Shown here: in pieces, positions 13,701 through 28,095 of the stretch
Position numbering within the stretch: position 1 is the first letter of the stretch
Layout of the letters: every line of letters starts with the position of its first letter
Assembly: GCA_027923505.1 (NCBI GenBank)
Contig: BROI01000023.1
Coordinates: 310,001-374,000 of the forward strand
Length of the DNA: 64,000 nucleotides
DNA from: Mayamaea pseudoterrestris
Taxonomy: Eukaryota
Direction: 5' to 3'
Program-made: the position numbers and the translations under genes
The notes under the pieces: model-generated
Seen by the model: only the letters and a program-made list of their open reading frames with translations
Told to the model about the DNA's origin: nothing
Database searches by the model: none

Positions 13701-16136
13701 CTAACGCGTCACCCGCATCGAAGCCAACACGTCTGGAGGCAGCTGCCCTGCCATGGACTGCCGCTTAATAAGGTCTTGGTAGCGGGTGCATCGCGACATC
13801 AACTCACCATGATTACCAATGTCAACGATACTATGATCGTCTACCACGACAATTTGCTGCGCCCGTTGAATAGTGGAAAGGCGATGAGCCACAATCAGAA
13901 CGGTTCGTCCAACGACAGCCTTGTCAATAGCTTCCTGTACGAGGTGCTCCGACTAACGAGCAAAGCAAGCGATGAATAATGTGAGCGACACAAAGGCATG
14001 TTACGACATGAAATGACACGCAAGCGATTAGTTCACTCACCTCTGAATCCAACTGATGCGAAAAGAGTGCAAGTAACAAAGGGGTGAGTTTGACACGTCG
14101 ACGATACAGTACCACATATCGCTGCCATAAACCTACCGCACTAGTCGCCTCATCCAGCAACAAAATTCGGGGATTGACCAGCAAGGCGCGGGCGATTGCC
14201 AATCTTTGCTTTTGACCTCTGTCGTCAATGACAACAATGGAAAGGATAAGCGAAACTTACTTAACGGAGAAATGTGCGCAATCATCCATAGCACTTGTAC
14301 TTACCCGCTCAGCTTGACGCCTCGTTCGCCAACCAGCGTTTCAAATCGTTCGGGGAATGATTCGATAAACTCGTATGCGTTGGCCATTCGACAGACATCC
14401 TCAAGCTCCTTGTCGGTAACACTACGGTCGACTCCATATGTAATGTTTTCTCGACAAGTCAATCCAAATAGCGTCGGCTCCTGCTGGACAAATCCCATGG
14501 ACGAGCGCAGCCACTTCAAGTCGTAGCTACGAATGTCACGTCCGTCAATGCGAATGGATCCAGAATTAACATCGTAAAAGCGCTGCAACAAAGCCACTAC
14601 TGTACTCTTTCCTGTCCCGCTGCTGCCAACCAAGGCGGCTGTTGTATTTGCCGGAATGGTCAGCGAGAAATTTCGCAGCACTGGCGCCGTTGGACGTGAC
14701 GGATAAGAAAAAGTAACATTTTCAAATTCGACCAGTCCATGCATGCTTTCTGGCTTTACTGGCATGAGCGGGACCTCAACGTCAATCGCGGGCGTATCCA
14801 ACTCTGGGCCAGTGTCGCCGCTACAGTCCTTGCCACCGCCTGGCATGAGCATCTTGTCCGACTCTTTTGGAATCTCTGGAGTTCTCTCCAGCAAGTAAAA
14901 AATGCGTCCACTAGCACCTTGCGCTTCAATCAATTGCTGTATATACCGACTCGTCTGTCCCAACGAACCTCCAATCTGAAAAATGTAGCTCTGAAAAGCT
15001 GTCAACGCTCCAAGCGTAATTTGACCCGTCGCCACTTGCTTGAAACCAAACCAAAGCGACAAGTACAAGCTTCCAAAACCAAAACCGAAAATGAGTGTAT
15101 AAAAACCACTTGCGACAATGCTTTTGAAAAAGCCCACACTATATGTTGTCGGCTGCAACTTGTGCCGCACTGGCCACCAGTACTTGTACATGGCTGGATT
15201 GCCAATGTACGTTTGGTAGCGTGTGCGCTCCCGATCTTCCGCGGCAAAGGACTGCACCGTCCGCATAGCCCCAAGCGCCTCGGTGCTATGCGTCTGCGCC
15301 AATCCAAGTACGTCTTGGTATTGCTTGGAGAGACGGCCCATGAGCTTGCCGAATGGCATGGCCAAGCAAAAAATGATGAAAATGAATCCAAGCGTCACTC
15401 CAGCGAGCGACGGCGATATCCAAAACATTAGCGCGAGTGAAACAATTGCCTTGACGACACCAACGACGCATTCCGGAACACTCAAGCTGGTTGCTTGCTG
15501 CAACAGTGTTGTGTCGGACGACAGTCGACTCACTAATTCCCCAGTCTTGTGCGCATCAAAAAAGGCAATGTCCTGTGACAATATGCACGAATACAATTGG
15601 TTTCTGAGCCGCGCCACGACGCGCTCCCCAACGGCATTCATAATGCTGGTTCGCAGAAAGGACGCGACTACACCAGAAAAATGCAAGATCAAGACAAGTC
15701 CCATGACTCGATTAATTTGAGCCATGGTGTTTGTGAGTGCCGGATCAACCAGGAAATTGTATGCTTGCGCAAGAAGCAATGGTGTAATGAGCGTCAATGC
15801 TTCGGCGGCAACCATGAGGATCAAAGCGACAAATAGCATGGGAAACTCAGGACGAGCCAAGTAAAGAATCTTGGAGAGTGGAGGCAACGGAGTCTTGTCG
15901 GAAACGGCTGCTGGAGTCCCTTCCATTTCCTTTTCTGGAGTCGACGAAGATGAATGAGTCGATGCCGCTTTGATTGATTCATCCGAAGGAGCATTGATAT
16001 CGTCATGACCGGACGTGTCAACTGGCGATTCAATGTCTTGATTGCTCTCATTGTCTAGCTTCTTCGCGGCAGGCAATGCATCATTGTATTCTTGTTCAAT
16101 GGTAGTCGCATCTGTCGAGGAAGTTTCATTCATCAT
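13701..16136 (-). CDS. ABCB-family half transporter; complement(join(13701..13952,14041..14052,14137..14218,14305..16136))
   Basis: TMD with [14 protein letters not shown] and Walker A GSSGTGKS. The signature LSG|GQKQR, Walker B/D-loop [14 protein letters not shown] and H-loop AHRLST are all restored by three GT-AG introns. Confidence 0.93.
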
Positions 16137-17331
16137 GGCGGCGGCAATAGTTGCAGCAGCAACAATCAACACTATTGCGTCGCGTCCAGTTCAAAACAAT
16201 TCAGTAGACGTGTGAGTGCAGTTGCGAGCAAGTACAGTATAATAGTACCGTTAGCGTGCTTGCGATGGTTTGTAGTCGGAAGGATGAGCAATGAATGTGT
16301 CAGTCGGGCGAAGGCGAGAATCGACAGGAAGCATGATGAAACGTCGCATCGGTTCACGTTGTAACCAGTGCGACTCGATTTGGCGATACGTACGACTGAT
16401 TACTGTACTGCACCTTTACTGCTCAGGCTCCAAGTGGCTGCCGTTATTCATATAGTGTGCTACGCCTGTCACTAACTTACATGAACATTGATAGCAATAT
16501 AGCAAGCTTTCTCGTAAAGGTCAGGGGAACGCCAAAATACCCGCCAGGAATCAATCGTGGTGCCTCGTGTAGTTTTTGCAGCTTGAACGAGAGTCCCACG
16601 CTAAAGTGACAGCTTTACGAGCAAGATTTTGCAGGCTGCCAACCAACAGATCGATGAGCTCTTGTGCTTGCCGCGTGTTGTAATAATGCGGCGAAAGACT
16701 GGCAAAAGACGGCGGTACCGGTGAATGATCTTTGCACACTCGTTTGTTAGCATAGGTGCCCGCTTTAACGGGACGATACGTTTGGTCGTGCCGTTTTCCA
16801 TCTGCCTGATTGTAAATTCGTCTGCGTGTAGCTCTACATGTTTGGCAAAACGACTGATACGTCACATAGCTCATCGTGGGCTTTCGCTGGACGCTGAAGA
16901 GGCCACCCTAGCAATTTTCTCTTGGAGACGATCGACAAGTTTTGACGCTTCTTGGTCGTGTACGTTTCCGCGTCAACAAGCATGCGGTAAGACGGTCCTG
17001 GTGAGTTTCGTCAGACTCGGCGTTTTCTCTGGGCAGAAAGGGACTGGCCGTTTTGCCCAGACTCCAATTTCCCCCAACTCTCGAGCTGCATTTTAATTTT
17101 CCCATCCGGTCACATGAATTGTCTGCGCGTCCACCAGACACTCGCAACATTCGTCGCCCTACCTTTGGGTCTCATTGGGGGCGACTCTGGCGGTTTATCA
17201 GCAGTCCGGATTGTTGATGCGCAAACCGATAGGAATAGTCACACCGGTACACCGGAGTCGCGCTCCGACAAACGTAGGCGGCTGCCGACGTGCATGGCAA
17301 AACGAAAACGCACACACCACACAAAGTCACC

Positions 17332-19689
17332 ATGGCCTCGACGGAACCTCCTCCCCCTGCGGCTGCTCCGGAAGGGAACGAGTACTCGTCGGTGGCGTTG
17401 AATGCCCGAGAATTGGAATGGGCCATCAATTCGCCTGAACTAGTGGCGGAACACAAGAAGATCAATGGTCCCATCGTTCGAACAAGGTGAGTGTCTCAAG
17501 TCTCAACACGAGAGCTATAGTATTGAGAATTTATAATGCCGTCGAATCGACTACATCTTACATCTTTTAATATTCACGCTCCCATTGTGTCCATTGACCT
17601 TTAGGTAAGTTTTAAGGGAGACAAGATTTCTATGAGCGATCTTGTTTTCCATGTCATTCACTATTCACTCACTGATTGCTGCGCACTCACTCATTACTTC
17701 TCGCTCTTCCCTGTCATCATTTCATTTTGACGCAGATTCCCTCCCGAACCAAATGGTTTCTTACACGTCGGGCATGCCAAGAGCATGAACATGAACTTTT
17801 CACTAGCCTTTGACAAGCTTGGTGTACCGCTTGAACATCGTCGGACCATTTTTCGCTACGACGACACCAATCCAGATGCAGAATCGCCTGAGTACATTGA
17901 CTCGCTTCGCCGGGACGTTGAATACCTTGGATGGACTCCGGAAAGGACTACCTACTCGAGTGACAACTTTCAGCAGCTACATGACTTTGCTGTGCAACTA
18001 ATTCGCACTGGACATGCCTACGTTTGCGACATGACCAAGGCAGAAATGGAGGTGCAGCGCGAATTGGCCATGCGACGAGCCAATGCAAGAAACTCGGGCA
18101 AGGATCCAGACCTTGAACATCCCATTCTAGATTCAAATATCTTACCTGGCCGCAATCGAAATACCAGCGTTCAACGCAACTTGGATTTGTTTGAACGCAT
18201 GCGTCTTGGTTGCTTTGACGAGGGCACGTACACCTTGCGACTAAAGATGGACTTTGAAGCGGCTAATCCAAACATGTACGACTTGGTCGCCTACCGCATC
18301 CGATACACGACTCATCCGCATGCGGGCGATGGCTGGTGCATTTATCCCAATTACGACTTTACGCATGGAATTTGCGATTCGCTCGAGCACATTGACTATA
18401 GTATATGCACCTTGGAATTCGAGTCGAGGCGTGAACCGTACTTTTGGATTTTGCATGTACTCAACTTGTTTCGCCCCAAGGTTTACGAAATGAGTCGACT
18501 CAACTTGCAGTACACGGTCTTGTCCAAGCGCCGGTTGCTCAAGTTGGTAGACGCCAAGCATGTACGAGGATGGGACGATCCTCGCATGCCAACCATTTCC
18601 GGTATGCGGCGACGTGGCTATACAAAGGAAATTATCAACTCATTCTGCAACGACGTGGGAGCGACGCGAGCGAGCAATGTCGTCGAAATGACCAAGCTTA
18701 GTCAAACGGCACGATTGCACTTGGCAATTTCTTGCCCTCGCGCCATGGCGGCGTTGGATCCAATTAAGGTTGTGATCACCAATCATTCGGAGGTTGCCGG
18801 TGGCACAGACACGAGTCTGCGTGTATTCACAGTTGCAAATAGTCCGACGGATGATACCATGGGGTCACATACCATCGAGTTGACGGAAACAATCTACATT
18901 GATGCGAGTGACTTTCGCCTGAAAGATTCGCCGCAATACTATGGACTCGCTCCAAACAAGGCGGTTGGAATCAAGTACCATGGAGGCAACTTGTGCTGCA
19001 ACGATGTCAAGCTTGACGACAGTGGCAAGGTTGTGGAGCTGGTTTGCCACTTGGACGTGGCCGCAGATCGCGTAAAGCCAAAGTCATACATTTCGTGGGT
19101 ACCAAATAACAGCATCAAGGCGGAGGTTCGTCTATACGACAATCTGTTTTCTGTTCCAGAACCATCAGATCTTTGGGAGGATGAGCTTAATCCAGCGTCG
19201 GAAGTCGTTTACGAGAATGCTTTGGTGGATCCGTTTGTTCGACAGTTGATGGCTGGCTGCAAGGTCGACAAGTGGAGGTCCAATACGGCTTTGCAGTTTG
19301 AGCGTCTTGGTTATTTTGTTGTTGATTACGATACAACGTATAACTCTGAAGTGAACGACGGCAAGCTCGTCTTTAATTGCACCGTCAGCTTGAAGGAGGA
19401 GGTCGCCAAGAAGAAGCTTAATGCTGACGAGGAAGCCAAGCTCGAGGCTCGACGCAATCAGGCGCATAAGGATTTGGAAGCCAAGGAGATTCGCATGAAA
19501 ATTGCTCCGGCTGATTTCTTTCGCTTGGCTGAGGAGTTCAAGGGGCGCTTTGGCAAGTACGACGAATCGGGCATGCCGACGCATGACATTGACGGTACGG
19601 AACTGACCAAGAGTATGCTGAAGAAGCTAGAAAAAGAGAAGCAAAAGCACATTAAGCAACTAAGCAAGTGGAACCAGGGCGAGAAGTAG
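17332..19689 (+). CDS. QARS: Glutaminyl-tRNA synthetase; join(17332..17486,17736..19689)
   Basis: Splicing restores VRTR|FPPEPNGFLHVGHAK (HIGH motif). Also RYDDTNP, WCIYPNYDFTH, SICTLEF, LSKR, GWDDPRMPT and QFERLGYF. Confidence 0.96.
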
Positions 19690-27387: not shown

Positions 27388-27653
27388 AGGCAATAGTATA
27401 AAACGAGTGCCAGTGAAAACTGCGTCATAAAGGCGTAAGTAGGAAACGAGTGCCAGTGAAAACTGCGTCATAAAGACAATTGTGGGAAACGAGTGCCAGT
27501 GAAAAACGAGTCATGAGGCCTTAGTATGAAACAAATGCCAGTGAAAACTGCGTCATAAGGCAATAATATGAAATGAGTGCCAGTGAAAACTGCGTCATAA
27601 AGGCTTAAGTAGGAAACGAGTGCCAGTGAAAACTGCGTCATAAAGGCAATAGT
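27388..27653. repeat. Tandem repeat family B, array 1 (six 42-43-bp units)
   Basis: Core consensus AAACGAGTGCCAGTGAAAACTGCGTCATAA starts at 27401, 27444, 27487, 27529, 27571 and 27614. The array starts and ends with AGGCAATAGT. Confidence 0.95.
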
Positions 27654-28095
27654 GTGACATCGCTGAGCGATGCGCACTGCCTCATGTTGGGAGCAGAAAA
27701 TGAGTACGACAGCCTTACTGTTAATTTCCTGCAAAGGCTCGGCGTATGTTTTTGCTACTTTTAATGCCTTCGTTTGTCGCTTTTTGTCGCCATGATGGTT
27801 ACACAGTATGCTTGTCGACTCGAAACGTGAAGGCGCTCGTCTTCCGCCGTATCTTTGCACCAATTCTTGCCGAGCAGGCATTATGCTTAACCATTCCGGC
27901 GCACCGTGATGTTTGGAAGTGCTCACGCTCACGTTGAAACAGGTAGCGAATGGATGATGCCAATTTAATACCCATTCATTGCTTTGCGTCCCTCGAGCAA
28001 CGCAAACGCTGCAGGGCATCGCCGTCGCGAGGCAGATAGGAAAGCATCTTTGCTCCGTCGTCGTGCATTCTTGCATCAAAAGCATTCCAGATCCA

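Follow-up and report, generated by a model that had tools for sequence, protein, structure and literature searches.

The DNA analysed here is a 64-kb stretch of the 30.6-Mb genome assembly of the pennate diatom Mayamaea pseudoterrestris (hereafter, the window), and the gene at its focus, on the plus strand, encodes a cytosolic-type glutaminyl-tRNA synthetase (GlnRS) carrying the Pfam domains tRNA-synt_1c, tRNA-synt_1c_C and tRNA-synt_1c_C2. The gene has a single intron. Exon 1 (17332–17486, plus strand) opens with the ATG at 17332 and, read from the DNA, closes with CGA ACA AG, that is, with the end of VRT followed by the AG of an arginine codon. Exon 2 (17736–19689, plus strand), delimited by its open reading frame and the Pfam matches, starts with A TTC CCT CCC GAA CCA AAT GG (FPPEPNG...) and runs to the stop codon. 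Joined together, the two exons comprise 702 codons plus the stop, and the product is 100% identical to the 702-aa NCBI protein MPSEU_000941100 (P0001). The intron between them (17487–17735, plus strand) is 249 nt long, lies in phase 2, extends from GTGAGT to ACGCAG (3′ end TTTTGACGCAG), and is absent as a whole from the mature RNA.

Contigs assembled from four public sequencing runs contain the GlnRS stretch. Two of these runs, X1 and X2, come from one sample and retain the intron; X1 has the character of genomic DNA, and the assembly may derive from it. The runs X3 and X4 represent two further samples of the same single study and are RNA-like by their behaviour, none of the four runs being on record as RNA. 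Their contigs (~2.1 kb each, beginning at 17320 and 17315, respectively) join 17486 to 17736 and leave out exactly 249 nt with GT..AG ends. No sequence from inside the intron is present in these mature-type contigs, as is the case for introns with a zero-length exon, and no half-spliced contig was found in either RNA-like run, assembled contigs being unable to reveal rare intermediates. These results indicate that the GlnRS intron is real and completely removed, with borders confirmed by the RNA-like contigs. The first-pass annotation of the window had placed the intron at 17487–17735 on the grounds that these borders restore VRTR|FPPEPNG, and its coordinates agree with both the 702-aa protein and the observed junction.

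A gene for an ABC-B transporter lies 3.3 kb away on the minus strand. ORF joining, together with Pfam and PDB alignments, placed its introns at 14304–14219 (86 nt), 14136–14053 (84 nt) and 14040–13953 (88 nt). The 84- and 88-nt introns flank a microexon of 12 nt (14052–14041, minus strand), which encodes the LDSE of the conserved ...DEATSA|LDSE|SEHLVQ...; exon 2 aligns to residues 510–536 of PDB 8zpx_B and the last exon from residue 541, leaving exactly four residues between them, with 4f4c_A and 9oe1_A giving the same gap. Thus, introns that nearly abut one another are processed here. The 84-nt intron is itself an open frame, and its length is divisible by three. Elsewhere in the window, a gene for an EngA/Der-like GTPase (minus strand) has a tandem repeat of 43-nt units (27388–27654; 6.2 copies, ~80% match) at the 5′ end of its long ORF. 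Every unit includes TTATGACGCAG, a sequence that resembles the 3′ end of an intron, and a seeming TATGACGCAG acceptor at 27463 was excluded from the intron set as part of this repeat.

An acceptor-like element abuts a donor consensus within the GlnRS intron

Inside the GlnRS intron, the DNA reads CCATTGACCTTTAG|GTAAGT at the junction 17604/17605. The 3′ splice-site-like element TTGACCTTTAG (17594–17604, plus strand) comprises a branch-like TTGAC at 17594–17598 and an AG at 17603–17604, and the 5′ splice site GTAAGT (17605–17610, plus strand) follows this AG directly, forming the only AGGTAAGT in the window. The earlier description of an internal AG|GTAAGT preceded by a branch-like TTGAC and pyrimidines was thereby reproduced in sequence and in position. 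In sequence, TCCCATTGTGTCCATTGACCTTTAG|GTAAGT shows the arrangement by which ratchet points or zero-length exons are defined, a 3′ splice site (pyrimidine tract and AG) directly abutting a 5′ splice-site consensus. The internal acceptor, a TAG with few consecutive pyrimidines, appears weaker than the CT-rich acceptor at the end of the same intron. For the internal donor GTAAGT, the predicted probability of being unpaired is 0.58 versus a shuffle mean of 0.32, above 98% of 200 shuffles; the predicted accessibility of the other three splice signals of the intron is unremarkable compared with shuffles.

We assessed how often such a junction would arise by chance. Counting both strands, AGGTAAGT occurs once in the 64 kb, with ~2 occurrences expected from base composition. 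The GlnRS intron is T-rich and G-poor, and among 40,000 dinucleotide-preserving shuffles of its sequence, AGGTAAGT appeared in a fraction of 0.00047, AGGTRAGT in 0.00135, the loosest pattern AGGTRNGT in 0.0038 and the extended pattern YTNAY-N(2-25)-YAG|GTRAGT in 0.00042, all of these being figures for a site picked after the fact out of a very large scan. The fractions fall by about one-third when both halves are required to be at least 58 nt long. The 11 candidate introns of the window total 1212 nt and contain a single further internal AGGT, AGGTCGCA, which makes a poor donor. For the GlnRS intron and for the 64-kb window, a chance occurrence of the internal AG|GTAAGT is therefore unlikely; the site stands out less once the whole genome is considered. 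According to the available text of the source, M. pseudoterrestris has 11,017 genes with a ratio of mono- to multi-exon genes of 1.04 and a median of two exons in the multi-exon genes (PMC12159174). With about half of the genes being single-exon and the others having a median of two exons, we infer ~1 Mb of intron sequence, and therefore, on the shuffle rates above, a rough estimate of 2–5 AG|GTRAGT sites per genome expected by chance.

Both halves resemble the other candidate introns of the window

The internal junction divides the intron into sub-intron 1 (17487–17604, plus strand; 118 nt) and sub-intron 2 (17605–17735, plus strand; 131 nt). Sub-intron 1 has the donor AAG|GTGAGT, the 3′ end TCCCATTGTGTCCATTGACCTTTAG, a pyrimidine fraction of 0.73 at positions −25 to −4 and a GC content of 0.39, and sub-intron 2 has the donor TAG|GTAAGT, a CT-rich body, the 3′ end CATCATTTCATTTTGACGCAG, a pyrimidine fraction of 0.68 and a GC content of 0.41, as against a GC content of 0.49 for the window. 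Each half begins with a consensus donor and ends in a pyrimidine-rich stretch with a YAG; the homology-backed ABC introns, against which both were compared, show pyrimidine fractions of 0.64–0.73 over the same positions. The two donors also represent the two commonest donor types among the candidate introns of the window, albeit a small set. The other candidate introns, obtained by ORF joining, are 58–152 nt long with a median of 86 nt; homology backing is available for only the three ABC-gene introns, and RNA-like backing for only the GlnRS intron. Both GlnRS halves fall inside this length range, and the statement of the first-pass annotation that the internal site yields two normal-sized introns of 118 and 131 nt is exact. 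It had further described the whole intron as about twice the length of the others, given as 64–152 bp. The intron is indeed longer, and "twice" did not hold: at 249 nt, it is ~1.6 times the longest candidate and ~2.9 times the 86-nt median, and the range itself extends from 58 to 152 nt.

The two GlnRS acceptors share a TTGAC a few bases before the AG. More generally, TGAC or TGAT separated by 3–5 nt from the terminal AG ends the whole GlnRS intron, ABC intron 1 and the introns of two related GlnRS loci described below (L017 and L004), a pattern that may point to an unusually short distance from branch to acceptor in these diatoms. Over their final 21 nt, the GlnRS intron (17715–17735) and the L017 intron (413–433) are identical at 19 of 21 positions (CAYCATTTCMTTTTGACGCAG; shuffle fraction 0.0015). 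Because L004 and ABC intron 1 carry a looser version of the same pattern, we attribute this match to a branch/acceptor signal that is common to these introns and under strong constraint, not to homology.

Several further features of the two halves were noted. Sub-intron 2 contains, at 17666–17701, an 18-nt direct repeat with two CACTCAC copies complementary to the first donor GTGAGTG. Occlusion of this first donor by the CACTCAC repeats is not supported, as the donor is predicted to be no less accessible than in shuffles. Within sub-intron 1, a 22-codon ATG frame (17536–17604) stops exactly on the TAG of the internal acceptor, a coincidence that is probably meaningless. An alternative coding first exon in sub-intron 1 was discarded, since the frame that would join at 17604 contains no ATG after its stop at 17534–17536.

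Related loci place the intron in a single lineage

To place the intron in its history, we used 80 metagenome loci encoding relatives of GlnRS, 49 of which are diatom-like or related eukaryote-like and cover the N-terminal region. Several of these 49 are near-duplicates of one another, and 23 lie on contigs of at least 4 kb and are presumably genomic rather than transcript-derived. An intron at the Mayamaea position was found in none of the 49, and ...RTRFPPEPNG... is unbroken in all of them. Comparison with these relatives thus marks the GlnRS intron as lineage-specific. Because the coding sequence is continuous across all of these loci, the loss of a microexon at this site was rejected as an explanation; in the first-pass annotation, too, no coding microexon fitted the intron.

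Three of the related loci carry an intron of their own close by: L037 (190–297; 108 nt) at 16 nt upstream of the Mayamaea position, L004 (2914–2998; 85 nt) at 8 nt downstream, and L017 (325–433; 109 nt) at 25 nt downstream. These introns are of single size (85–109 nt), and the other 46 of the 49 loci, with the window not counted, have none in that region. Diatom GlnRS introns accordingly occupy four positions within 41 nt in four lineages (the window, L004, L017 and L037) around the region of RTRFPPEPNGYLH, the HIGH motif, a pattern that suggests repeated independent gain or intron shifting. The closest relative of the protein, a JGI metagenome protein of 634 aa with 86% identity (P0002), begins at MNMNF just past the HIGH motif, which hints at the start that a prokaryote-style gene caller would choose if an intron or a contig end lay upstream.

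We also searched for traces of how the double structure arose. Local alignments of half 1 with half 2, or of either half with either exon, did not score above shuffles (p 0.10 to 0.88), and an origin of the halves by duplication of an AGGT-containing segment is not supported by these scores. Copies of the GlnRS halves were found neither elsewhere in the 64 kb nor in the 80 related loci; the one match was of 18 nt, extended to 21 nt by local alignment, and lay at the 3′ end of the L017 intron. The intron also lacks terminal inverted repeats. Within this range of sequence, nothing favours a mobile-element origin, for instance from an introner or introner-like element, which would be expected to have many similar copies in the genome, with terminal repeats or target-site duplications. 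The tandem intron gain that the first-pass annotation had raised as a possibility would agree with a lineage-specific intron but draws no support from the comparisons of the halves or from the search for copies. An Rfam search of the intron (E up to 10) returned only sR17 on the minus strand, at 18.3 bits against a gathering score of 36, together with one weak match, and the z-score of the fold is only −2.3; on these results, an intronic snoRNA, a U1 gene or another RNA was dismissed.

Discussion

The first-pass annotation had described abutting AG|GT sites as defining recursive splicing in long animal introns. The confinement to long animal introns needs correcting, as such sites also occur in a 336-nt intron of Schizosaccharomyces pombe and a 375-nt intron of Cryptococcus neoformans. 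In the latter, the BOT1 intron consists of 210 + 165 nt around a zero-nucleotide exon, and the available text of the report describes measured junctions, branches and spliceosome-bound intermediates for both halves (Burke et al., 10.1101/224170). The GlnRS intron resembles BOT1 as described there: the organism has short introns, the gene is essential, and what is annotated as one intron exceeds the usual length a few times over, with a near-midpoint 3′ splice site abutting a 5′ splice site and full excision as the only form visible in poly(A) RNA. Unlike the fungal BOT1 intron with its measured intermediates, the GlnRS intron belongs to a diatom and is known from its sequence and final junction alone. 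The S. pombe case, SPNCRNA.445, is a snoRNA host gene, the zero-length exon of which is reported, in the portion of the paper available, to be conserved across Schizosaccharomyces (Chen et al., 10.1101/226894). It likewise shows an internal 3′ splice site adjoining a 5′ splice site within an intron of a few hundred nucleotides, with complete removal confirmed; in contrast, GlnRS is protein-coding, no snoRNA was found in its intron, and no orthologous intron is present among the 49 loci. As far as the available text of these two reports extends, both fungal cases were found by spliceosome profiling, and ordinary RNA-seq or RT-PCR showed full excision alone (10.1101/224170, 10.1101/226894).

Two other systems invite comparison, again on the available portions of the sources. 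Ratchet points of Drosophila (10.1101/006163, PMC8605326) share the juxtaposed acceptor and donor and the regeneration of a 5′ splice site after the first step, which for GlnRS is proposed here. They differ in occurring within introns of great length, for which removal in steps answers a size problem that an intron of 249 nt does not have. Fungal complex intervening sequences and stwintrons can be excised by one reaction or by two in succession, and new functional splice sites may arise within an existing intron (PMC7138796, PMC8469720, PMC12403724); the GlnRS intron, too, could potentially be excised by one reaction or by two consecutive ones. A stwintron is defined by an inner intron lodged in the donor, branch element or acceptor of an outer intron, such as between nucleotides G1 and T2 of its donor, so that the outer signal forms only once the inner intron has been excised (PMC7138796, PMC8469720, PMC12403724). 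By contrast, GTGAGT (17487), TTTAG (17604), GTAAGT (17605) and CAG (17735) are all intact in the GlnRS DNA and merely abut. We therefore rejected classification of the GlnRS intron as a stwintron, as no splice signal is interrupted. A full-text search of one literature library found no description of recursive splicing in diatoms, and the word "intron" is absent from the text of the M. pseudoterrestris genome paper (PMC9724779).

The explanation that we favour, with a confidence just short of even, is that the GlnRS intron is a composite: ordinary units of 118 and 131 nt placed head to tail around a zero-length exon (TTTAG|GTAAGT), with the internal sites used in a real share of transcripts beside one-step removal. 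We put use of the internal sites, taken by itself, at about even; this use, the order of the steps and the origin of the arrangement are what we infer from the DNA and the final junction. Internal-site use appears to be the likeliest account because both halves fall within the usual length range of the organism and a perfect U1 site lies 131 nt upstream of a strong acceptor. Excision could follow three routes. In one, the first donor would be joined to the internal acceptor, removing half 1 and regenerating AAG|GTAAGT, whose donor would next be joined to the terminal acceptor. In another, half 2 would leave first, by joining of the internal donor to the terminal acceptor, and the remaining TTTAG|A would then be joined to the first donor. 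In the third, the first donor and the terminal acceptor would be joined directly, and the whole intron would leave in a single step. Since all three routes yield the same mRNA, the arrangement would be fail-safe and the protein unaltered. An internal donor on its own would be expected to produce an mRNA with a premature stop in an essential gene, retention of half 1 giving an immediate in-frame TGA at 17488–17490; it would probably be harmless only when paired with a working acceptor, as is found here. The ABC microexon and the zero-length exons of the 375-nt and 336-nt fungal introns make two-step removal more plausible, and plausible is how we grade it.

Nearly as much weight goes to the simpler alternative, which we regard as a serious possibility somewhat below even: an ordinary single intron removed in one step, whose internal AG|GTAAGT arose by chance, has no activity and is tolerated as a weak decoy. 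Full-length excision is the sole product observed in the RNA-like contigs, although contigs cannot show rare forms, and 249 nt is well within the range of one-step removal. The weaker appearance of the internal acceptor and the handful of AG|GTRAGT sites that a genome should contain by chance, on our rough estimate and for a site picked after the fact, tell in the same direction. Consistent with an inert motif, neither the alignments nor the search for copies in the window gave a sign of separate origins of the two halves, and the searches of the intron revealed neither a structured RNA nor another function. What the single-intron account leaves poorly explained is the improbability of the motif per intron in the shuffles, its pyrimidine-rich, branch-like upstream context and the two typical intron lengths that it yields; moreover, a perfect, predicted-accessible U1 site so near a strong acceptor would be expected to compete.

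Two further alternatives carry far less weight. The internal pair might serve regulated or noisy alternative splicing, such that a retained half would introduce a premature stop and lead to decay of the message (AS-NMD control of the GlnRS level). The in-frame TGA on retention of sub-intron 1 would fit this, and S. pombe is reported, in the available part of the source, to use AS-NMD for a splicing factor gene (10.1101/226894); but no such control is known for GlnRS and, as weak evidence, neither RNA-like run contains a partly spliced contig, and we consider the idea improbable. Still less credible is that the double structure is the scar of a tandem duplication, whether the copied unit was an exon segment containing AGGT or the intron as such, given half-to-half and half-to-exon alignments no better than those of shuffled sequence.

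For the origin of the composite that we favour, one broader proposal, which we hold to be unlikely, is that diatoms, as in the two fungi examined by spliceosome profiling, resolve introns exceeding their preferred length via zero-length exons and that the GlnRS intron was formed when a second intron was gained at the AG|GT junction of a recently gained first one. The 5′ junction of an intron would be the best proto-splice site, and gain would hence occur exactly there. On this view, introns of double length would show an excess of AG|GTRAGT at their midpoints genome-wide, and diatom GlnRS, where the four intron positions of four lineages fall within 41 nt, would be an active hot spot for the gain of introns.

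Should the internal site prove inert, it would simply be one of the few chance donor-like motifs expected in the introns of a genome. If it is used, the GlnRS intron would be the first instance of zero-length-exon (recursive) splicing reported in a diatom or in any stramenopile. Together with the two fungal cases, it would argue that stepwise removal is not only a solution for giant animal introns, and such removal may instead be a general consequence of intron-definition splicing where the preferred length range is narrow. The lineage-specific intron and the compact, sequenced genome of M. pseudoterrestris (PMC9724779) would lend the locus value as a clean, protein-neutral model for the birth of splice sites or introns inside or beside a recently gained intron.
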